Assembly: GCF_988242995.1 (NCBI RefSeq)
Contig: NZ_OZ547043.1
Direction: 5' to 3' (one strand)
Length of the DNA stretch: 64,000 nt
Both the position numbers and the translations under genes were made by a program. Under the pieces are notes generated by a model. The model did not search any database. It was not told where the DNA came from and saw only the letters and a program-made list of their open reading frames with translations. This document shows, one piece after another, positions 1 to 47,520 of the stretch (positions are counted from its first letter, which is position 1; every line of letters begins with the position of its first letter).

Positions 1-38
1 GTGAACAAAGATGGACATCTGTAAACGGTCTGGAAGTA

Positions 39-272
39 ATGAGTATGTTTGATGAGTATTGTCATCACATCTACCTTGATGATATCAATAAAAAAATACA
101 AGCTGAATTACCTGAAGATAAAACATTAGGTTTCAAACGTCAATTGCAATTTTTCATTTTAGGGGATGAGAAGATTAGAATATGGGTGCCACAGGGGGAA
201 TTATATTTCGCATTAATGAATGTATTGCAGATGTTCCCCCTGAAAAAAATGGTTGATGACTGGACAAGGTAA
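39..272 (+). CDS. hypothetical small protein (77 aa), AT-rich
   Basis: ORF track; preceded by GGAAG ~6 nt upstream; upstream reading frame stops at 22-24; low GC relative to core genes; no recognisable family. Confidence 0.3.
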   Translation: MSMFDEYCHHIYLDDINKKIQAELPEDKTLGFKRQLQFFILGDEKIRIWVPQGELYFALMNVLQMFPLKKMVDDWTR

Positions 273-391
273 TTTCAAATCACAGTAATGTCCATCGATT
301 ATACATGGTACGTAAACAGACTCGCACCGTTTTTGCAGAAGGTTAATGTGTCGTCTATCGAGAGCAGTCTCATATATGAAGGGGTATTAAC

Positions 392-769
392 ATGGATGAA
401 TGTTTTATAAATATCACTCCGACTTCATTGTCTTTTAAAAATGCCGAACTATCAGATTTAAGCTATAAAAATGCCAGGCTTGAACTTACCCTCATATGTC
501 CGGCGATCAAGTCAGAAGTTAAGTTATCATTTGACTGGATACATTCATTTCGTGTTACTGACGAAGGTGATTTGTTAGGAATGTCAGGAATTCACGGTAT
601 TAACCAAACGGGGATCTATAGAGTAGTGAATTCCGCCTACTTTGCATGGTTTACTATGCAAAGTTGTGAAATTTATAAAAATAATGTGATCGAGCATTAT
701 GTCATTGCCACGTCAAATGATGTTATTGATGTTTTATCAACAGTTTCTCCGCAAATACAGTATGACTAA
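392..769 (+). CDS. hypothetical protein (125 aa), AT-rich
   Basis: ORF track; strong SD-like GAAGGGG 8 nt upstream of ATG; low GC; no recognisable family. Confidence 0.4.
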   Translation: MDECFINITPTSLSFKNAELSDLSYKNARLELTLICPAIKSEVKLSFDWIHSFRVTDEGDLLGMSGIHGINQTGIYRVVNSAYFAWFTMQSCEIYKNNVIEHYVIATSNDVIDVLSTVSPQIQYD

Positions 770-884
770 AACCAGTGTCTGGTTCGCGATGGCGAGGTAG
801 AAAAAGCATCATCTTCCTTTCAGAGTGCTCCGCTTCTCATTATTATCTCACGCAGTATTCTTAAGGGAACGATAAGGAGGAACC

Positions 885-1685
885 ATGAACATTACCCCGT
901 TTCCGACGCTTTCGCCGGCAACCATAGATGCCATAAATGTTATCGGACAGTGGCTGGCGCAGGATGATTTCTCCGGTGAGGTGCCGTATCAGGCCGATTG
1001 CGTGATCCTTGCAGGCAATGCGGTTATGCCGACTATCGACGCGGCATGTAAGATTGCTCGCGATCAGCAAATTCCTTTACTGATCAGTGGTGGTATCGGT
1101 CACTCGACAACTTTTTTGTATAGCGCCATCGCACAGCATCCGCACTACAACACTATTCGCACCACTGGCAGAGCAGAAGCGACCATCCTGGCGGATATCG
1201 CTCATCAGTTCTGGCATATTCCGCATGAAAAAATCTGGATTGAAGACCAGTCAACAAACTGCGGTGAAAACGCACGCTTTAGCATCGCGCTATTGAATCA
1301 GGCCGTAGAACGAGTTCATACGGCTATCGTTGTTCAGGACCCCACCATGCAGCGGCGCACGATGGCGACGTTCCGCCGTATGACCGGGGACAATCCAGAT
1401 GCACCTCGCTGGTTAAGTTATCCCGGATTCGTTCCTCAGCTAGGAAACAACGCAGACAGTGTAATCTTTGTTAATCCGTTGCAAGGATTATGGCCGGTTG
1501 AGCGTTATCTATCACTACTCACTGGCGAGCTGCCGCGTTTACACGATGATAGCGATGGCTATGGTCCCCGCGGGCGAGATTTTATTGTTCACGTTGATTT
1601 TCCGGCAGAAGTCATCCATGCATGGCAAACGCTGAAACACGATGCGGTGCTCATCGAGGCGATGGAAAGTCGCTCGTTACGTTAA
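885..1685 (+). CDS. ydcF: DUF218-family protein YdcF
   Basis: 266 aa ORF, N-terminus [29 protein letters not shown] recognised as YdcF; GGAGG RBS upstream. Confidence 0.9.
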
Positions 1686-1881
1686 AAATTGCCCGTTTGT
1701 GAACCACTTGTTTGCAAACGGGCATAACTCCTGCCTTTTATTTCTGCCTCTTATTCCTTTTACACTTGTTTTTATGAAGCCCTTCACAGAATTGTCCTTT
1801 CATGATGCCGTCTCTATGATGATTGATGTTAATTAACAATGCATTTACCAAAAACAAACATATAAATCACAGGAGTCGCTC

Positions 1882-3321
1882 ATGTCAGTACCCGTTCAAC
1901 ATCCTATGTATATTGATGGACAGTTTGTTACCTGGCGTGGAGACGCATGGATTGATGTGGTAAACCCTGCTACAGAGGCTGTCATTTCCCGCATTCCCGA
2001 TGGTCAGGCCGAGGATGCCCGTAAGGCAATCGATGCAGCAGAACGTGCACAACCAGAATGGGAAGCGTTGCCTGCTATTGAACGCGCCAGTTGGTTGCGC
2101 AAAATCTCCGCCGGGATCCGCAAACGCGCCAGTGAAATCAGTACGCTGATTGTTGAAGAAGGGGGTAAGATCCAGCAGCTAGCTGAAGTCGAAGTGGCTT
2201 TTACTGCCGACTATATCGATTACATGGCGGAGTGGGCACGGCGTTACGAGGGCGAGATTATTCAAAGCGATCGTCCAGGAGAAAATATTCTTCTGTTTAA
2301 ACGTGCGCTTGGTGTGACTACCGGCATTCTGCCGTGGAACTTCCCGTTCTTCCTCATTGCCCGCAAAATGGCTCCCGCTCTTTTGACCGGTAATACCATC
2401 GTCATTAAACCCAGTGAATTTACGCCAAACAATGCGATTGCATTCGCCAAAATCGTCGATGAAATAGGCCTTCCGCGCGGCGTGTTTAACCTTGTTCTGG
2501 GGCGTGGTGAAACCGTTGGGCAAGAACTGGCGGGTAACCCAAAGGTCGCAATGGTCAGTATGACAGGCAGCGTCTCTGCAGGTGAAAAGATTATGGCGAC
2601 TGCGGCGAAAAACATCACCAAAGTGTGCCTGGAACTGGGGGGTAAAGCACCGGCTATCGTAATGGACGATGCCGATCTTGAACTGGCAGTCAAAGCCATC
2701 GTTGATTCACGCGTCATTAATAGTGGGCAAGTGTGTAACTGTGCAGAACGTGTTTATGTACAGAAAGGCATTTATGATCAGTTTGTCAATCGGCTGGGTG
2801 AAGCGATGCAGGCGGTGCAATTTGGTAACCCCGCTGAACGCAACGACATTGCGATGGGGCCGTTGATTAACGCCGCGGCGCTGGAAAGGGTCGAGCAAAA
2901 AGTGGCGCGCGCAGTAGAAGAAGGGGTGAGAGTGGCGTTGGGTGGCAAAGCGGTAGAGGGGAAAGGATATTATTATCCGCCGACATTGCTGCTGGATGTT
3001 CGCCAGGAAATGTCGATTATGCACGAGGAAACCTTTGGCCCGGTGCTGCCAGTGGTCGCATTTGACACGCTGGAAGAGGCTATCGCAATGGCTAATGACA
3101 GTGATTACGGCCTGACCTCATCAATCTATACCCAAAATCTGAACGTCGCGATGAAAGCCATTAAAGGGCTGAAGTTTGGTGAAACTTACATCAACCGTGA
3201 AAACTTCGAAGCTATGCAAGGATTCCACGCCGGATGGCGTAAATCCGGTATTGGCGGCGCAGATGGCAAACATGGCTTGCATGAATACCTGCAGACCCAG
3301 GTGGTTTATTTACAGTCGTAA
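1882..3321 (+). CDS. aldA: lactaldehyde dehydrogenase (NAD-dependent aldehyde dehydrogenase A)
   Basis: 479 aa; aldehyde dehydrogenase motifs (ELGGKAP, catalytic Cys region GQVCNCAERVYV); recognised as AldA. Confidence 0.95.
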   Translation: MSVPVQHPMYIDGQFVTWRGDAWIDVVNPATEAVISRIPDGQAEDARKAIDAAERAQPEWEALPAIERASWLRKISAGIRKRASEISTLIVEEGGKIQQLAEVEVAFTADYIDYMAEWARRYEGEIIQSDRPGENILLFKRALGVTTGILPWNFPFFLIARKMAPALLTGNTIVIKPSEFTPNNAIAFAKIVDEIGLPRGVFNLVLGRGETVGQELAGNPKVAMVSMTGSVSAGEKIMATAAKNITKVCLELGGKAPAIVMDDADLELAVKAIVDSRVINSGQVCNCAERVYVQKGIYDQFVNRLGEAMQAVQFGNPAERNDIAMGPLINAAALERVEQKVARAVEEGVRVALGGKAVEGKGYYYPPTLLLDVRQEMSIMHEETFGPVLPVVAFDTLEEAIAMANDSDYGLTSSIYTQNLNVAMKAIKGLKFGETYINRENFEAMQGFHAGWRKSGIGGADGKHGLHEYLQTQVVYLQS

Positions 3322-3330
3322 TGAGTGAAA

Positions 3331-3356
3331 GAGGCGGAGGCTTTTCTCTCCGCCTT
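3331..3356. terminator. bidirectional rho-independent terminator between convergent aldA and gapC
   Basis: inverted repeat AGGCGGAG...CTCCGCCT with flanking T/A runs. Confidence 0.6.
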
Positions 3357-3362
3357 TGCGCG

Positions 3363-4364
3363 TCAGAGTTTAGCGAATTTTTCGAGGGTGCGAATAAGCT
3401 GCGTGACGAAGCCATATTCGTTATCATACCAGGCGACCGTTTTCACCAGCTGTAAATCGCCCACGGCGGTAATTTCGGTTTGCGTGGCATCAAACACCGA
3501 CCCGAAATGGCTGCCAATGATATCAGAAGAGACTATTTCTTCATCGGTATAACCAAATGACTCGTTATTGTTTGTCGCCTTTTTAAGCGCGTTGTTCACC
3601 TCTTCGGCAGTCACTTTTTTTTCGAGAATAGACACCAGTTCAGTCACCGAACCTGTTTTCACGGGTACGCGTTGCGCATGACCTTTCAGTTTGCCGCTCA
3701 GTTCCGGGATCACCAGACCAATGGCTTTTGCCGCACCTGTAGTGTGGGGAATGATATTTTCTGCCGCTGCACGTGAAGCGCGTAGATCTTTACCTCGCGG
3801 ACCATCCACCAGTGACTGAGTGCCGGTATAGGCATGAATGGTCGTCATCGTGCCGACTTCTATTCCGAAACTGTCGTGCAAGGCTTTGGCCATCGGTGCA
3901 AGACAGTTAGTGGTGCATGACGCCACGGAAACAATGGTGTCGTTGCCATCCAGAGTGTCGTCATTGACGTTATAAACGATAGTTTTCATTTCACCGGCAG
4001 GGGCGGAAATCAACACCTTCTTCGCACCAGCATCAAGATGCGCCTGCGATTTCTCGGCGGAGGTATAAAAGCCAGTACATTCGACAATAATTTCTGCCCC
4101 TTTCGCTTTCCACGGAATATTTTTAGCCTCTTTTTCGGCGTAAACCGCGATACTTTTCCCATCAACGATAAGTGAATCTTCCGTAAAATCAACGCTCCAG
4201 GGGAACGGTCCGTAGTTTGAATCATGTTTCAGCAGGTAGGCGAGAATTTTTGGGGAAGTGAGATCATTAATAGCGACAATGTCTATGTTGCTTTTGACTT
4301 CAAGTAATCGACGCAACACCAGTCGACCGATACGACCAAAACCGTTAATACCAACTTTACTCAT
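3363..4364 (-). CDS. gapC: glyceraldehyde-3-phosphate dehydrogenase GapC (intact reading frame)
   Basis: 333 aa uninterrupted ORF; N-terminal NAD-binding motif INGFGRIGR; active-site region SCTTNCLAP. Confidence 0.9.
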
Positions 4365-4552
4365 GGTCTTCTCCTGTCAGGAACGTTCGGATGAAAATTG
4401 ATCCTTTCCAGGCTTAGACCAGGATGGCGGGATGGGCAATCTACATTCTTGCCGTGAAACGTAACGTACTGAAAACGGGTGAACAATATTTAATGAAATT
4501 TTAAGAAAAGCCCGTTATGTTAACGGAAAATTATGTTAAAGCAGGAAATGTT

Positions 4553-5083
4553 ATGGGAAATAAATACTCAAGGTTACAAATCAGCATTCACTGGCTGGTC
4601 TTTATGCTGGTTATCGCAGCGTATTGCGCAATGGAGTTTCGGGGTTTCTTCCCACGTAGCGATCGGCCACTCATCAACATGATTCATGTTTCCTGTGGCA
4701 TATCAATTCTCGTGCTGATGGTCGTTCGTCTTTTGTTAAGGCTGAAATACCCAACCCCGCCGATTATACCTAAGCCAAAACCGATGATGACGGGACTGGC
4801 GCATTTGGGCCATTTGGTGATTTATCTCCTGTTTATTGCGCTGCCAGTGATTGGTTTGGTGATGATGTATAACCGGGGCAACCCGTGGTTTGCGTTTGGT
4901 TTGACGATGCCTTATGCATCAGAGGCCAATTTCGAACGGGTTGATAGCTTAAAGTCGTGGCATGAAATGCTGGCGAATCTGGGATATTTTGTCATCGGGT
5001 TGCACGCTGCGGCTGCACTGGCACACCACTATTTCTGGAAGGACAACACACTTCTACGCATGATGCCGCGTAAACGTTCCTGA
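4553..5083 (+). CDS. cybB: cytochrome b561
   Basis: ORF 4517..5083; likely native start at internal ATG (MGNKYSRLQISIHWLVF...) giving ~176 aa multi-TM protein. Confidence 0.85.
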   Translation: MGNKYSRLQISIHWLVFMLVIAAYCAMEFRGFFPRSDRPLINMIHVSCGISILVLMVVRLLLRLKYPTPPIIPKPKPMMTGLAHLGHLVIYLLFIALPVIGLVMMYNRGNPWFAFGLTMPYASEANFERVDSLKSWHEMLANLGYFVIGLHAAAALAHHYFWKDNTLLRMMPRKRS

Positions 5084-5093
5084 AGGATATTTA

Positions 5094-5157
5094 AAGAAAA
5101 CGCCTGTACTAAAACCGACCCGTGGTACAGGCGAAGAATACGGGTCTACATCGGAAG
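5094..5157 (-). ncRNA. rydC: RydC small regulatory RNA
   Basis: reverse complement reads CTTCCGATGTAGACCCGTATTCTTCGCCTGTACCACGGGTCGGTTTTAGTACAGGCGTTTTCTT, recognised as RydC; lies between cybB and ydcA. Confidence 0.75.
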
Positions 5158-5327
5158 CGCCTATTATATTTATTTGTATGACAAATAAAACCATAATCCT
5201 TATCCATACGTCCATCTGGCTTATCTTTAATCAATTCACCCGATCTTTGATCTCATCAACGGTATCAAAATAAACCAGCGTATAACGTTCAAATCGAACA
5301 TAAGATTCGATAAACCATGGAGGTTAT

Positions 5328-5501
5328 ATGAAAAAACTGGCACTCATCTTGGTTATAGGAGCGCTTGTTTCCTTTTTTGCCGATGCCGGGCGCAAACCCT
5401 GTTCTGGTTCGAAAGGGGGGATCTCACACTGTACGGCAGGCGGCAAATTTGTCTGTAATGATGGTTCTATTAGTGCATCGAAAAAAACATGCACTAACTG
5501 A
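5328..5501 (+). CDS. ydcA: small secreted/lipoprotein-like protein YdcA (57 aa)
   Basis: ATG at 5328 with GGAGG RBS; MKKLALILVIGALVSFFADAGRKPCSGSKGG...; below ORF-track size cutoff. Confidence 0.8.
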   Translation: MKKLALILVIGALVSFFADAGRKPCSGSKGGISHCTAGGKFVCNDGSISASKKTCTN

Positions 5502-5572
5502 AGTGTAAAAGGGGTGCCATGAGAAAATGAATCTGCTAGTCAGATGCGCGGGGAAAATCCCCGCGCTTGCCC

Positions 5573-5764
<192 letters not shown>

Positions 5765-5780
<16 letters not shown>

Positions 5781-5830
5781 TCGTTGGCCTCGGTTGATAG
5801 AAATATCGGTCGGGGCCTTCGTCTTTCTGA
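5765..5830 (+). ncRNA. sokB: putative SokB antisense RNA region (boundaries approximate)
   Basis: expected antisense to the mokB start/leader by analogy to hok/sok loci; not delimited from sequence alone. Confidence 0.25.
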
Positions 5831-6054
5831 TTCCCGGTTAGCCTGAAAACAGAAAGTCTCAGGCACCCGTGAGCATCCTATGTGGTTTCCTTAGGGACGA
5901 AAATAATCACCTGACGAAATTGCGTGCTGTTTTCCAGAATTTTTCGTCATTCGGGTTAGCCAGTTTAGCCATTCGTTACTCTCTTCATTCCAATAGCATT
6001 AATTTTCTCTGCAATAATTGTTGTAAAAATGTGACGCAAAGAGGTTTTTGGTCA

Positions 6055-6081
6055 TAAGTAATTATCGTCAAGTGCCGATGA
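6055..6081 (+). promoter_or_regulatory. sigma28 (FliA)-type promoter upstream of trg
   Basis: TAAGTAAT-N11-GCCGATGA matches the TAAAGTTT-N11-GCCGATAA class 3 flagellar/chemotaxis promoter consensus, ~40 nt upstream of trg ATG. Confidence 0.5.
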
Positions 6082-6120
6082 CTTTCTATCAGGAGTAAAC
6101 CTGGACGAGAGACAACGGTA

Positions 6121-7761
6121 ATGAATACAACTCCCTCACAGCGATTAGGTTTTTTGCATCACATCAGGCTGGTTCCGTTATTTGCCTGCATTCTTGGCGG
6201 TATCTTAGTTCTATTCGCATTAAGTTCAGCTCTGGCTGGCTATTTCCTCTGGCAGGCCGATCGCGATCAGCGTGATGTTACTGCGGAGATTGAGATTCGG
6301 ACCGGGTTAGCGAACAGTTCAGATTTTTTGCGTTCAGCCCGGATCAATATGATTCAGGCTGGTGCTGCGAGTCGTATTGCTGAAATGGAAGCAATGAAGC
6401 GAAATATTGCGCAAGCCGAATCGGAGATTAAACAGTCGCAGCAAGGTTATCGTGCTTATCAGAATCGGTCGGTGAAAACACCTGCTGATGAAGCCCTCGA
6501 CACTGAATTAAATCAACGCTTCCAGGCTTATATCACGGGTATGCAACCGATGTTGAAATATGCCAAAAATGGCATGTTTGAAGCGATTATCAATCATGAA
6601 AGTGAGCAGATCCGACCGCTGGATAATGCTTATACCGATATTTTGAGCAAAGCCGTTAAGATACGTAGCGCCAGAGCCAACCAACTGGCGGAACTGGCCC
6701 ATCAGCGCACCCGTCTGGGTGGGATGTTCATGATTGGCGCGTTTGTGCTTGCCCTGGTCATGACGCTGATAACATTTATGGTGCTACGTCGGATCGTCAT
6801 TCGTCCACTGCAACATGCCGCACAACGGATTGAAAAAATCGCCAGTGGCGATCTGACGATGAATGATGAACCGGCGGGTCGTAATGAAATCGGTCGCTTA
6901 AGTCGTCATTTACAGCAAATGCAGCATTCACTGGGGATGACAGTAGGGACTGTTCGACAGGGTGCGGAAGAGATTTATCGTGGCACCAGCGAAATTTCAG
7001 CTGGCAATGCGGACCTGTCATCTCGCACCGAAGAACAAGCGGCGGCTATCGAACAAACTGCCGCCAGCATGGAGCAACTTACTGCGACGGTGAAACAGAA
7101 TGCGGATAACGCGCATCATGCCAGCAAACTGGCGCAAGAGGCTTCTATTAAAGCCAGCGATGGCGGGCAGACGGTTTCCGGTGTAGTAAAAACGATGGGC
7201 GCTATCTCCACGAGTTCGAAGAAAATTTCTGAGATCACCGCCGTCATCAACAGTATTGCTTTCCAGACGAATATTCTGGCACTGAATGCTGCCGTTGAAG
7301 CCGCGCGAGCGGGTGAGCAAGGGCGTGGATTTGCCGTTGTCGCCAGCGAAGTACGGACACTCGCAAGCCGCAGCGCTCAGGCGGCGAAAGAGATTGAAGG
7401 CTTGATCAGTGAATCAGTCAGGTTAATTGACCTGGGGTCGGATGAGGTGGCAACGGCAGGGAAAACCATGAGCACTATTGTTGATGCCGTCGCGAGTGTC
7501 ACACATATCATGCAGGAAATCGCCGCCGCCTCGGATGAACAAAGTAGAGGCATAACTCAGGTTAGCCAGGCGATTTCTGAAATGGATAAGGTGACGCAAC
7601 AGAATGCTTCTCTGGTAGAAGAGGCCTCAGCGGCGGCGGTGTCCCTTGAAGAACAGGCGGCACGATTAACTGAGGCGGTGGACGTATTCCGTCTGAACAA
7701 ACATTCTGTGTTGGCAGAACCTCGCGGAGCGGGTGAACAAGTTAGTTTCGCTACGGTGTGA
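6121..7761 (+). CDS. trg: methyl-accepting chemotaxis protein III (ribose/galactose sensor)
   Basis: 546 aa; two TM segments, HAMP, conserved MCP signalling domain with methylation-site heptads; recognised as Trg. Confidence 0.95.
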
Positions 7762-12209: not shown

Positions 12210-12925
12210 CACAGAAAACCCCCAGCTAGGCTGGGGGTTCCGGAAAGCTTTCAGCTTTGAGCCAGTTATTAAAACCCCTTTTGATTTGTTAAAACACCTT
12301 GCGGTCTGGCAACTGCAAGTGTCAAACAAGAAATCAAAAGGGGGTCCCAATGGGGGACGAAAAGAGCTTAGCGCACACCCGCTGGAACTGTAAATATCAC
12401 ATAGTTTTTGCGCCGAAATACCGAAGACTGGCGTTTTACGGAGAGAAGCGTAGGGCGATAGGCAGTATTTTGAGAAAGCTGTGTGAGTGGAAAAGCGTAC
12501 GGATTCTGGAAGCAGAGTGCTGCGCAGATCATATCCATATGCTTGTGGAAATCCCACCCAAAATGAGCGTATCCGGCTTTATGGGATATCTGAAAGGGAA
12601 AAGCAGTCTGATGCTTTACGAGCAGTTTGGGGATTTGAAATTCAAATACAGAAACAGGGAGTTCTGGTGCCGAGGGTACTATGTCGATACGGTGGGTAAG
12701 AACACGGCGAAGATACAGGACTACATAAAGCACCAGCTTGAAGAGGATAAAATGGGGGAGCAGTTATCGATTCCATATCCGGGCGGCCCGTTTACGGGCC
12801 GTAAGTAACGAAGTTGAATGCAAATGTCAGATCGTATGCGCCTGTTAGGGCGCGGCTGGTAACAGAGCCTTACAGGCGCATTTGAAAAACCTCCGGCTAT
12901 GCCGGAGGATATTTATTAACAACTG
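12210..12925 (+). mobile_element. IS200-family (IS200/IS605) insertion sequence, ~0.7 kb (ends approximate)
   Basis: contains Y1 HUH transposase gene; subterminal hairpins (CCCCCAGCTAGGCTGGGGG near left end; GCGCCTGTTAGGGCGCG and CCGGCTATGCCGG near right end) typical of IS200 ends. Confidence 0.65.
12350..12808 (+). CDS. tnpA: IS200-family transposase TnpA (Y1 HUH)
   Basis: 152 aa from MGDEKSLAHTRWNCKYHIVFAPKYRR...; HUH motif (HIHM) and catalytic Tyr region; the 169-aa track ORF has an N-terminal extension. Confidence 0.85.
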   Translation: MGDEKSLAHTRWNCKYHIVFAPKYRRLAFYGEKRRAIGSILRKLCEWKSVRILEAECCADHIHMLVEIPPKMSVSGFMGYLKGKSSLMLYEQFGDLKFKYRNREFWCRGYYVDTVGKNTAKIQDYIKHQLEEDKMGEQLSIPYPGGPFTGRK

Positions 12926-41078: not shown

Positions 41079-44000
41079 ATGAGCGGAAAACCGGCGGCGC
41101 GACAGGGCGATATGACCCGCAAGGGACTGGATATTGTGCAGGGTTCAGCGGGGGTGCTGATAGGTGCGCCGACGGGAGTGGCCTGCTCGGTGTGTCCCAA
41201 CAGCCCGGTGGAGGAGCAGAAGGGTAACCCGGTGAACCCGCTACTGGGTGCGAAGGTGCTGCCGGGCGAGACGGATCTTGCGCTGCCCGGCCCGTTGCCG
41301 TTTATTCTTTCCCGCGCCTACAGCAGCTACCGGACCAGGACACCCGCGCCGGTGGGGGTGTTTGGTCCCGGCTGGAAAGCGCCCTTCGATATCCGCTTAC
41401 AGGTTCATGAGCGGGAACTGATACTCAACGACAGTGGCGGCAGGAGCATTCACTTTGAGCCGCTGTTTCCCGGCGAGATAAGCTACAGCCGCAGCGAGTC
41501 GTTCTGGCTGGCAAGGGGCGGGGTGGCGGAGCAGCACAGTTCGCAGCCGCTAAGCGCGCTCTGGCAGGTGCTGCCGGAGAGTCTCCGCTTAAGCCCGCAT
41601 GTGTACCTGGCGACAAACAGCCTTCAGGGGCCGTGGTGGATACTCGGCTGGCCGGAGCGGGTACCGGAGGCGGACGAGGTGCTGCCGCCGGAGCCGCCCG
41701 CATACCGGGTGCTGACGGGCGTGGTGGACGGCTTCGGGCGGACGCTGGCCTTCCACCGGGCGGCAGAGGGGGAAGCGGCGGGCGCGGTGACGGGGGTGAC
41801 GGACGGCGCGGGCCGCCGTTTTCATCTGGCGCTGACCACACAGGCGCAGCGGGCGAAAGCCTTCCGTAAACAGCGCGAGTCTTCTTTATCTTCTCCGGCC
41901 AGTCCCCGTTCTGTTTCCTCTTCTCAGTTTTTCCCCGACACGCTGCCCACCGGTACAGAGTACGGTGCCGATAACGGTATCCGGCTGGAGGCGGTATGGC
42001 TGACACACGACCCGGCATACCCGGATGAACTGCCGACTGCGCCGCTGGCGCGCTACACGTACACGGCCAGCGGAGAACTGCGGGCGGTGTATGACCGCAG
42101 CGGTACGCAGGTGCGCGGGTTTACTTATGATGCGGAGCACGCCGGGCGGATGGTGGCGCACCATTATGCGGGGAGGCCGGAGAGCCGCTACCGGTATGAT
42201 GATACCGGTCGGGTGACGGAGCAGGTCAACCCGGAGGGGCTGGACTACCGCTTTGAGTACGGGCAGGACCGCGTGACCATCACGGACAGCCTGAACCGGC
42301 GGGAGGTGCTGTACACGGAGGGCGAGGGCGGCCTGAAGCGGGTGGTGAAGAAGGAGTATGGGGACGGGAGCATCACCCGCAGCGAGTATGATGAGGCGGG
42401 GAGGCTGAAGGCGCAGACGGATGCGGCGGGACGGCGGACGGAGTACCGGCTGCATATGGCGTCGGGAAAGCTGACTTCAGTGATACTGCCGGACGGCAGG
42501 ACGGTACGGTATGGTTACAACAACCAGTTGCAACTGACGTCAGTGACGTACCCGGACGGGCTGCGCCGCAGCCGGAAATATGACCGTCAGGGCAGGCTGG
42601 CGGAAGAGGTCTCGCGCAACGGTAACATTACGCGCTGGTTTTATGATTCTTCCCGCAGTGGCCTGCCCTGTGCGGTGGAAGACGGAACCGGGGTGAGGCG
42701 GAGAATAACGCGAAACCGGTACGGTCAGCTTCAGGCATTTACGGACTGTTCAGGGTACACGACGCGGTATGAATACGACCGGTACGGTCAGAGGACGGCG
42801 GTTCACCGGGAGGAAGGCATCAGCACTTACAGCAGTTATAACCCGCGTGGTCAACTGGTCAGTCAGAAGGATGCGCAGGGACGTGAAACCCGTTATGAGT
42901 ACAGCGCCGCAGGCGACCTCACCGCTATCATTGCCCCGAACGGCAGCCGGAGTGAGACACAGTATGATGCGTGGGGAAAGGCCGTCAGCACCACGCAGGG
43001 CGGACTGACGCGCAGCATGGAGTATGACGCCGCCGGGAGCATCACCGTGCTGACCAACGAGAACGGCAGCCAGTCCACGTTCCGGTATGACCCGGTGGAC
43101 AGGCTGACGGAGCAGCGCGGCTTTGACGGCAGGACACAGCGTTACCGGTACAGCGCCACAGGGCAGCTCATCCGCAGCGAGGATGAGGGGCAGGTCACGC
43201 AGTGGTACTACGATGACGCCGGGCGCATCACGCACCGGACGGTGAACGGCGACCCGGCGGAGCAGTGGCAGTATGACGACCACGGCTGGCTGACAGAAAT
43301 CAGCCACCTGAGCGAAGGCCACCGTGTGGCGGTCCACTACGGCTATGACGATAAAGGCCGCCTGACGGGCGAACGGCAGACGGTGGAGAACCAGGAGACG
43401 GGGGAGATGCTGTGGGAGCATGAGACGAGGCACGTCTACAGCGAACAGGGGCTGGCGACCCGTCAGGAGCCGGACGGTCTGCCGCCGGTGGAGTGGCTGA
43501 CGTATGGCAGCGGTTATCTTGCGGGGATGAAGCTGGGCGGAACGCCGCTGGTCGAGTACACGCGGGACCGGCTGCACCGTGAGACGGCCCGCAGCTTCGG
43601 CGGGGCGGGCAGTACAGCGGGGTACGAACAGGCCACGGCGTACACCCTCACAGGGCAGCTCCGGAGCAGGCACCTGAACCTTCCGCAGCTTGACCGTGAG
43701 TATACGTGGAACGATAACGGGCAACTGGTGCGCATCAGCGGCCCGCAGGAGAGCCGGAAGTACCGTTACAGCGACACGGGAAGACTGACGGGCGTTCACA
43801 CCACGGCGGCGAACCTGGATATCGATATCCCGTATGCGACGGACCCGGCAGGAAACCGGCTGCCGGACCCGGAACTGCACCCGGACAGCACCTTCACGGC
43901 GTGGCCGGATAACCGCATCACGGAAGATGCGCACTATGTCTACCGCTACGATGAATACGGCAGGCTGGCGGAGAAGACGGACCGTATCCCGGAAGGGGTG

Positions 44001-45290
44001 ATACGGATGCACGACGAGCGGACGCACCACTACCATTACGACAGCCAGCACCGCCTGGTGTTCTACACGCGGATACAGCACGGCGAGCCACAGGTGGAGA
44101 GCCGCTACCTCTATGACCCGCTGGGCCGCCGGACGGGGAAACGGGTGTGGCGGCGGGAGCGTGACCTGACGGGGTGGATGTCGCTGTCGCGTAAACCGGA
44201 GGAGACCTGGTACGGGTGGGACGGTGACAGGCTGACGACGGTACAGACCGGCACCACGCGTATCCAGACGGTATACCAGCCGGGGAGCTTCACGCCGCTC
44301 ATCAGAATCGAAACAGAGAATGGTGAACAGGCGAAGGCGCGGCACCGGAGTCTGGCGGAGGTGTTGCAGGAGGACACGGGGGTGACGCTACCGGCGGAGC
44401 TGTCGGTGATGCTGGGGAGGCTGGAGCGGGAACTGCGCGCGGGTGCGGTGAGTGCGGAGAGTGAGGCATGGCTTCAGCAGTGCGGGCTGACGGCGGAACA
44501 GATGAAAAACCAGATGGAGGCGGAATACATCCCGGAGAGGACACTTCATCTTTACCACTGCGACCACCGGGGGCTGCCGCAGGCGCTCATCAGCCCGGAA
44601 GGGGAAACGGCGTGGCAGGGGGAGTATGACGAGTGGGGAAACCTGCTGGGCGAAACCAGCGCGCAGCAACTGCAACAGCCGTACCGTCTGCCGGGGCAGC
44701 AGTATGATGAGGAGTCGGGGCTGTACTATAACCGCAACCGGTACTATGACCCGTTGCAGGGGCGGTATATCACCCAGGATCCCATTGGGCTAAGAGGTGC
44801 ATGGAACCTGTATCAGTATCCATTGAATCCAACTACTAAGATAGATCCGTTGGGTCTCTCCGGAGAAGATTCCATAGAGCAGTCAGGTCCATCTTGGTTG
44901 ATTGCTGACCCCATGGATAAATACAGACAACAGGCAGTGATGGGTTTAACAAAATTGTGGGATGATACCTTTAGTCAAGAGAAGACTAAATGTTTACCTA
45001 CGACACCTGAAAACATCAGGATGGTTGTGGCCAACAGTCCCTTGTTGACAGTACAACAAAAAGTCTCAGTACCCGTAGTAGCTCACTACGTACAAATGCT
45101 GGAAGATGGTAGTGGAGCACCACCGGTTGATATGGATGGGAATGTGATTGTTAATGGTAATCACAGGATGGTTGCGGGTCTGTTATGTGATAAACTTCCT
45201 CCTGAGCGGCCAGGTACGCGTCCATTATCGGCACCACTATATCCGTTTAGCCAAATTTTTCCGGAGTTAGATGATTGGGGGAATAGATGA
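41079..45290 (+). CDS. Rhs-family polymorphic toxin, full length (PAAR-like N-terminus, YD-repeat shell, DPxGL boundary, variable C-terminal toxin tip)
   Basis: 1403 aa; N-terminus [12 protein letters not shown]...GVACSVCPN; many YD repeats; conserved core end ...[33 protein letters not shown] (ends 44858); GC-rich core, AT-rich tip after 44858. Confidence 0.95.
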
Positions 45291-45772: not shown

Positions 45773-46064
45773 CAAGGATCATAACTCATTATTTTCTGTG
45801 TCAGTAACACTGATGTGGAAAGTAGACTTACTTGCAATAGCCACCGGGATCTGCTGTTGAAAGCCGATCCCAAACAACCCCGGTTGCTGTGGTAAAGAGT
45901 CATAGTAGCGAGCGCAGGGGGAGTGCTCAGATTATATGAGATACAGTGAAATGAATAAACCCGAACCTGTGTTGACGTGTCGTTAGTCCTAAGCGGCATC
46001 AGAACCGGAGGTTTCGTGATACCGCCGTGATAAATTTACGGGTGAATTCCGAATGCTACGTAAA

Positions 46065-47520
46065 GGGTGTCCGGCGTATAGCAGACATCAGGATAAAAGT
46101 ATGAAAGCCCACGCCCCACAAGGCTTTACCGGATGATGAGTTTTTAAACTACGACATTACTTTTACAGTAAAATCCATCATGTTGGTATTTTCTCTCGAA
46201 CAATTTGACGATCCACGGAAAGATCACGTAACGCTGCTTTTTTGTACTAGACAATTCGCATTTTATGTTTAACAATTGAGATATTCCTCATTACCTGAAG
46301 CTGTTTTTTATTGCGTATACATGATCAAATACTCCTTACATAATTAAGGAGAACAAAATGGAACTTAAAAAATTGATGGAACATATTTCTATTATCCCCG
46401 ATTACAGACAAGCCTGGAAAGTGGAACATAAATTTTCGGATATTCTACTGTTGACTATTTGTGCCGTTATTTCGGGTGCAGAAGGCTGGGAAGATATAGA
46501 GGATTTTGGGGAAACACATCTCGATTTTTTGAAGCAATATGGTGATTTTGATAATGGTATTCCTGTTCACGATACCATTGCCAGAGTTGTATCCTGTATC
46601 AGTCCTGCAAAATTTCACGAGTGCTTTATTAACTGGATGCGTGACTGCCATTCTTCAGATGATAAAGACGTCATCGCAATTGATGGAAAAACACTCCGGC
46701 ATTCTTATGACAAGAGTCGCCGCAAGGGAGCGATTCATGTCATTAGTGCGTTCTCAACAATGCACAGTCTGGTTATCGGACAGATCAGGACGGATGAGAA
46801 ATCCAATGAGATTACAGCTATTCCAGAACTTCTTAACATGCTGGATATTAAAGGAAAAATCATCACAACTGATGCGATGGGTTGCCAGAAAGATATTGCA
46901 GAGAAGATACAAAAACAGGGCGGTGATTATTTATTCGCTGTAAAAGGAAACCAGGGGCGGCTAAATAAAGCCTTCGAGGAAAAATTTCCGCTGAAAGAAT
47001 TAAATAATCCAGAGCATGACAGTTACGCAATTAGTGAAAAGAGTCACGGCAGAGAAGAAATCCGTCTTCACATTGTTTGCGATGTCCCTGATGAACTTAT
47101 TGATTTCACGTTTGAATGGAAAGGTCTGAAGAAATTATGCGTGGCAGTCTCCTTTCGGTCAATAATAGCAGAACAAAAGAAAGAGCCAGAAATGACGGTC
47201 AGATATTATATCAGTTCTGCTGATTTAACCGCAGAGAAGTTCGCCACAGCAATCCGAAACCACTGGCACGTGGAGAATAAGCTGCACTGGCGTCTGGACG
47301 TGGTAATGAATGAAGACGACTGCAAAATAAGAAGAGGAAATGCAGCAGAATTATTTTCAGGGATACGGCACATGGCTATTAATATTTTAACGAATGATAA
47401 GATATTTAAGGCAGGGTTAAGACGTAAGATGCGAAAAGCAGCCATGGACAGAAACTACCTGGCGTCAGTCCTTGCTGGGTGCGGGCTTTCGTAATCTTGC
47501 CCTGCGCCAAAGATTCCATA
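46065..47520 (+). mobile_element. H-repeat (ISAs1-family) element, copy 2 (ends approximate)
   Basis: conserved upstream block homologous to copy 1; intact transposase ORF. Confidence 0.6.
46358..47494 (+). CDS. ydcC: H-repeat-associated (ISAs1-family) transposase, intact (YdcC-like)
   Basis: 378 aa; [52 protein letters not shown]...; clearly related to but diverged from the copy at 39521..40657. Confidence 0.85.

Follow-up and report, generated by a model that had tools for sequence, protein, structure and literature searches.

An uninterrupted gapC gene, very probably encoding a functional second GAPDH, in Escherichia coli

Annotation lists gapC (b4493) of Escherichia coli K-12 MG1655 as a 1001-bp pseudogene. 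The stretch of DNA analysed here (64,000 nucleotides, hereafter the window) carries a gapC frame that runs through without interruption. This raises the question of whether the strain may retain a functional second glyceraldehyde-3-phosphate dehydrogenase (GAPDH), as suggested in an earlier note on the sequence that rightly gave gapC as a pseudogene in K-12, and whether such retention would set it apart from other E. coli.

Gene identity and genomic context

The window gene lies on the minus strand, which the earlier note had not specified, and the frame of 333 amino acids described there is confirmed by both the list of open reading frames (ORFs) and the raw sequence, with no internal stops or frameshifts. 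The start codon ATG occupies positions 4364-4362 and the stop codon TAA positions 3365-3363.

3363..4364, minus strand: gapC coding sequence (CDS), 333 aa plus TAA stop; type I NAD-dependent GAPDH according to the ORF list and HMMs

The gene is flanked by a convergent aldA (1882..3321, plus strand) and a divergent cybB (plus strand), whose ORF opens at 4517 and whose K-12-equivalent start lies near 4553. Beyond cybB follow rydC, the hokB/sokB locus and then trg, in the gene order of K-12 MG1655. The position between aldA and cybB agrees with the annotations of K-12 and of strain 746, and over its full length the gene is 96.2% identical to K-12 gapC (38 differences in 1002 nt) and 100% identical to a CDS annotated as 'gap' in strain 746. 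Of 5426 complete E. coli genomes, 5417 have a match to gapC, always at 90% identity or more. Among the 5428 matches in complete assemblies, five sit on plasmid-labelled records; these may be replicons assigned wrongly or large plasmids that have captured a chromosomal segment.

The GC content of gapC (47.7%, compared to approximately 51% in its neighbours) offers a faint hint of foreign origin. Recent lateral transfer was rejected, given the small size of this gap and the fixed locus in 5417 of 5426 genomes. Since gapC holds this locus in essentially all E. coli, any transfer must have been ancient.

Divergence from K-12 is unevenly distributed along the locus, peaking in the 3' half of gapC at 6.8% in 3500-3750, as compared to about 2% in the flanks. 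In steps of 250 bp, this half (3363-3900) differs from K-12 by 4-7%, compared to about 2% for aldA, cybB and trg. The differences are almost all synonymous, which points to old allelic divergence rather than decay. The segment may be an old recombinant or mark a deep allelic split.

Catalytic potential of the window GapC

The predicted protein matches the type I GAPDH equivalog model TIGR01534 over its full length (1-330 of 330) with 449.1 bits, above the cut-off of 367.2, and shows the expected two-domain architecture (Pfam PF00044 Gp_dh_N, 123 bits; PF02800 Gp_dh_C, 199 bits). Both motifs that the earlier note had read in the protein are present. The catalytic Cys150 lies within SCTTNC, with His177 about 27 residues downstream, and the NAD-binding GxGxxG motif reads G8-F-G-R-I-G13 and is accompanied by Asp34. 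An acidic residue of this type selects NAD over NADP in type I GAPDHs. GapC also keeps R11, I12, D34, K78, S120, T180, T182 and R232, all named NAD or phosphate contacts in a crystal structure (PMC8615399).

4326..4343, minus strand: codons 8-13, GxGxxG dinucleotide-binding motif, including NAD-contacting Arg11 and Ile12 (translation; contacts from PMC8615399)
3915..3917, minus strand: codon 150, catalytic Cys within SCTTNC; C150A abolishes activity in a 98.8%-identical enzyme
3834..3836, minus strand: codon 177, catalytic His; wild-type activity is ~8000-fold above that of H177A in the same 98.8%-identical enzyme

On every criterion that sequence can address, the gene thus qualifies as a type I GAPDH and as the E. 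coli gapC orthologue. GapA (b1779), the housekeeping glycolytic GAPDH, belongs to the same family and shares its fold and chemistry, including the conserved SCTTNC motif and catalytic His. The two proteins are, however, only 47% identical over 333 aa and are encoded at different loci, and GapA is constitutive while GapC appears to be sigma-S-linked. GapC scores 306 against the GapA-type equivalog NF011954, below the cut-off of 662. The level of identity to GapA indicates an ancient paralogue, not a recent duplicate.

A search of solved structures returned end-to-end matches of 722 bits to the window protein (PDB 7C5F, 7C5H, 7C5P, 7C7K and others). These belong to EcGAPDH1, whose crystallised sequence equals the natural gapC allele of strain 2 HS-C, and the source paper never uses the name gapC. 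EcGAPDH1 oxidises glyceraldehyde-3-phosphate (G3P) in an NAD-linked reaction with a KM of 0.73 mM (Zhang et al., Biomolecules 2021, PMC8615399). Activity is abolished by C150A and greatly reduced by C150S and by H177A, and the enzyme has been trapped as the G3P thioacyl intermediate (PMC8615399). The two proteins are products of the same gene and share Cys150, His177 and the NAD and phosphate contacts. They are identical at 329 of 333 positions (98.8%, 7C5F); the activity was measured for the EcGAPDH1 allele, from which the window allele differs by I29V, E248G, K262Q and N265T (window residue first).

Are these four substitutions likely to matter? They fall among the only nine positions that vary in nine intact alleles, and E248 of the window protein is the residue that GapA carries at the aligned position; the four sites are therefore apparently tolerant. 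Across the same nine alleles, that of the window included, dN/dS is 0.03-0.055 at dS 0.09-0.18, indicating strong purifying selection on gapC. Near-identity to EcGAPDH1, the retained residues, this selection and the conserved signals upstream of the gene together support the earlier suggestion of a functional second GAPDH, and we consider the window GapC very probably a catalytically competent NAD-dependent enzyme. It would convert glyceraldehyde-3-phosphate, NAD+ and phosphate to 1,3-bisphosphoglycerate and NADH by way of a thioacyl intermediate on Cys150, with His177 assisting.

The K-12 lesions and their distribution

Alignment to K-12 gapC, which the earlier note had proposed as a way to locate the K-12 lesion, revealed two lesions in K-12, both of which the window gene lacks, and no overlooked frameshift in the window gene. 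The first is A115T, which turns Lys39 from AAA to a TAA stop. The second is the loss of one A from a poly-A run at gene nt 743-750 (codons 248-250), after which the frame shifts by -1 beyond codon 249. At codon 39 the window gene reads AAA, and its poly-A run, eight A long (A8), is in frame; it also differs from the K-12 gene in lacking R18G.

4248..4250, minus strand: codon 39, AAA (Lys); TAA in K-12 and in 1155 of 5426 complete genomes (alignment, allele counts)
3615..3622, minus strand: A8 homopolymer (T8 on the plus strand), codons 248-250 GAA AAA AAA; site of the K-12 frameshift

The K-12 pseudogene (b4493; formerly gapC_1/gapC_2, b1417/b1416) occupies the same aldA-cybB locus as the window gene and has the same upstream region. 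It differs from the allele of strain 2 HS-C, which is natural and intact, by exactly three changes, namely C52G (R18G), A115T and the deleted A, so its lesions must be evolutionarily very recent.

We estimated how often these lesions occur using diagnostic 45- and 47-mers in which every 28-base megablast seed spans the lesion. Among 5426 complete genomes, the K-12 nonsense allele at codon 39 was present in 1155 (21%), sense AAA in at least 3767, and the K-12 frameshift allele (A6) in 1050; these are counts of alleles rather than exact intact and broken totals over all 5417 gapC genomes, and approximately 495 genomes match neither codon-39 probe, probably as a result of nearby SNPs. Low-complexity masking was expected to make the A7 and A8 alleles uncountable by megablast probes, and a 72-mer was used in distant-match mode.

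A sample of 39 full-length gapC matches, evenly spaced through the ranking, contained nine of a length other than 1002 bp. All eight 1002-bp alleles fetched from other lineages (Nissle 1917, O157:H7, 2 HS-C, O25:H4, O39:NM, 3R, 19KM1803 and EC21Z-147) are annotated by PGAP as an intact CDS, whereas both of the shorter alleles fetched are flagged 'frameshifted; internal stop', with which our own translations agree. Intact gapC is thus the majority state, with a share of roughly three-quarters to four-fifths among complete E. coli genomes, a collection that over-represents laboratory K-12 derivatives, and K-12 is the exception. The earlier wording, that this strain may retain the enzyme, therefore describes the norm.

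Of the carriers of the K-12 lesions that were sampled, about two-thirds are natural isolates, with sources including river and beach water, swine, cattle, duck, chicken and patients. The lesions are therefore marks of a natural lineage and not laboratory acquisitions. That they represent a natural polymorphism passed on by descent, present in about one in five sequenced E. coli, is better supported than a slippage switch at the poly-A run (see below), and it slightly corrects the phrasing in the literature, which speaks of laboratory domestication. Approximately 105 genomes have the codon-39 stop without the A6 47-mer, which suggests that the stop came first. Given its loss from about a fifth of complete genomes, gapC must be dispensable in at least some niches.

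That gapC is intact outside K-12 has been known since 1998, and in this respect the window finding is ordinary: in their passages citing Espinosa-Urgel & Kolter 1998, two later papers describe the gene as intact in environmental isolates (PMC2949598, PMC1796617). What is mildly new here is the exact map of the K-12 lesions against a natural allele, the allele frequencies and the A8 tract.

Expression signals and proposed role

The sequence around the gapC start is strongly conserved, with 97% conservation over the aligned region 4355-4560 in eight lineages, and a candidate terminator lies on the aldA side.

4371..4375, minus strand: Shine-Dalgarno sequence AGGAG, 6 nt upstream of the ATG, a strong ribosome-binding site; invariant in eight lineages
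4365..4552, no strand assigned: divergent gapC-cybB intergenic region, putative gapC promoter (97% conservation; K-12 sigma-S data)
3332..3355, no strand assigned: GC-rich hairpin between the convergent aldA and gapC stops, candidate shared terminator (RNA fold -15.5 kcal/mol, z = -2.2)

The hairpin was missed by the terminator scan because its T-tract (U-tract) is weak; the hits that the scan did return were regarded as chance, since they are located inside coding sequence. A consensus scan of the sequence found no convincing sigma-70 promoter for gapC. The sole minus-strand sigma-70-like site (4559-4530) lies inside cybB, and shuffled sequences give as much. A sigma-S-like -10 element, TCTAAGCCT, was spotted by eye near 4419-4411; it is a weak match and was not relied on.

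Data from K-12 point to sigma-S. The intergenic region between gapC and cybB shows a sigma-S ChIP-seq peak (PMC4447067), and glucose-limited chemostat cultures of an rpoS mutant contain 5.6-fold less gapC_1 transcript (PMC4512719). In passages that cite Espinosa-Urgel & Kolter 1998, gapC is described as preferentially expressed in fresh water (PMC2949598) and is credited with a role in aquatic survival (PMC1796617).

By analogy with K-12, a sigma-S-dependent promoter in the intergenic region would drive gapC in the window strain as well. We infer the expression, regulation and physiological role of the gene there from these K-12 data. Sigma-S-dependent transcription would make GapC a conditional second isozyme, serving in stationary phase, starvation or fresh water, and not the main glycolytic enzyme. 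The window gene is the intact chromosomal gapC of an E. coli lineage other than K-12, with strain 746 as its closest relative; in stationary phase or in the environment, gapA may not be the sole source of GAPDH in this strain. As a reference for gapC, K-12 is atypical, and metabolic models or knockout readings based on it therefore miss the sigma-S-linked second GAPDH of most natural E. coli. Beyond correct annotation, the significance of the finding is slight.

The poly-A run and alternative readings

Frameshifts have recurred at the run in codons 248-250, a mutational weak spot in an otherwise conserved enzyme gene. The run measures A8 in the window and A7 in the eight sampled intact alleles of other lineages (GGA AAA AAA), and it is shortened to A6 (-1) in K-12 and the 1050 complete genomes counted above and to A5 (-2) in ETEC1734. 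The A8 arose from a G->A substitution at codon 248 (GGA->GAA), with no change in length relative to the common in-frame allele. The window allele is rare: only seven of 5426 complete genomes reach at least 99% identity over gapC, among them strain 746 (canine, Edinburgh), which is 100% identical. All seven of these relatives have A8 in frame and an identical 72-mer around the run.

Could the frame be open while the gene is silent or being lost in this lineage, a cryptic copy that has taken no disabling hit yet? The dispensability of gapC in about 20% of genomes would fit such a history, as would the lengthening of a slippage-prone run to A8 in the window lineage and the lack of a clear sigma-70 promoter in the consensus scan. 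We nevertheless consider it very unlikely, since the low dN/dS, computed with the window allele included, argues for continuing selection. Moreover, conservation extends to the Shine-Dalgarno sequence and the region upstream, rpoS-dependent transcription of gapC persists even in K-12, where the gene is a pseudogene, and A8 is in frame in seven of the seven genomes of the lineage.

The same run might also be imagined as a slippage-prone on/off switch for GapC, with the G->A change raising the switching rate in the window lineage. We regard this idea as very improbable. Independent slips appear rare, as only four of 1050 A6 matches depart from the K-12 47-mer, and phase variation at the run was considered unlikely for that reason.

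A further alternative, which we hold to be barely plausible, is that the protein is a GAPDH-fold enzyme with another main substrate or role, such as erythrose-4-phosphate dehydrogenase (Epd/GapB; E4PD) or an arsenate-linked GAPDH. Epd shares the superfamily and domain architecture of GapC, and the matches to the E4PD and ArsJ-associated NCBIfam models are significant. They nevertheless remain well below the curated cut-offs. GapC reaches 278 bits against a TIGR01532 cut-off of 530.55, and 282 against 539 for E4PD, so that it stands at about half the cut-off of both TIGR01532 and NF010058 and is not a member of the Epd family. The ArsJ-associated GAPDH model gives 309 against 450, and no arsJ neighbour lies near gapC among the window ORFs or in the strain 746 annotation. 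In addition, EcGAPDH1, at 98.8% identity, oxidises G3P with NAD and was caught as the G3P thioacyl intermediate.

Homopolymers are the commonest site of sequencing error. It is nonetheless extremely improbable that a miscall at A8, the very run that bears the K-12 lesion, hides a real frameshift and makes the open frame an assembly artefact, given that the 72-mer is shared by seven complete genomes, each assembled independently and at least 99% identical across gapC, that strain 746 is 100% identical, and that A8 stems from GGA->GAA and not from a length change.

Other features of the window

Positions 1-6918 of the window are otherwise 100% identical to strain 746, which carries an IS150 between trg and hokB that the window lacks at the corresponding site (near 5795, between hokB/sokB and trg). 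The IS150 transposase is also listed within the 12-kb match in the next six closest complete genomes. Given this identity, the source of the window either predates the insertion or has lost it, and is not one of the complete genomes compared.

Two ORFs upstream of ydcF have no K-12 counterpart, the K-12 alignment beginning near window position 812, and no Pfam match. They are a lineage-specific insertion between hrpA and ydcF.

39-272, plus strand: 77-aa ORF upstream of ydcF; strain 746 has a 450-bp CDS there
392-769, plus strand: 125-aa ORF upstream of ydcF; matches a 378-bp 'hypothetical protein' CDS of strain 746

A group II intron match was found further along the window, between an Rhs gene and a transposase gene.

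41079-45290, plus strand: ORF for a full-length 1403-aa Rhs protein (RHS repeats, DUF6531, RHS core), 5' of the intron match
45840-45948, plus strand: group II intron D1-D4 match (Rfam), 48 bits, gathering score 36
46358-47494, plus strand: ORF for a DDE transposase of the H-repeat type, 3' of the intron match

No reverse-transcriptase ORF is evident at the intron match, which is therefore probably a piece of an intron inside an Rhs element. Three expected small RNAs were also identified at their gathering scores.

5094-5157, minus strand: RydC
5717-5868, minus strand: sok antitoxin RNA of hokB/sokB
12217-12340, plus strand: STnc490, downstream of opgD
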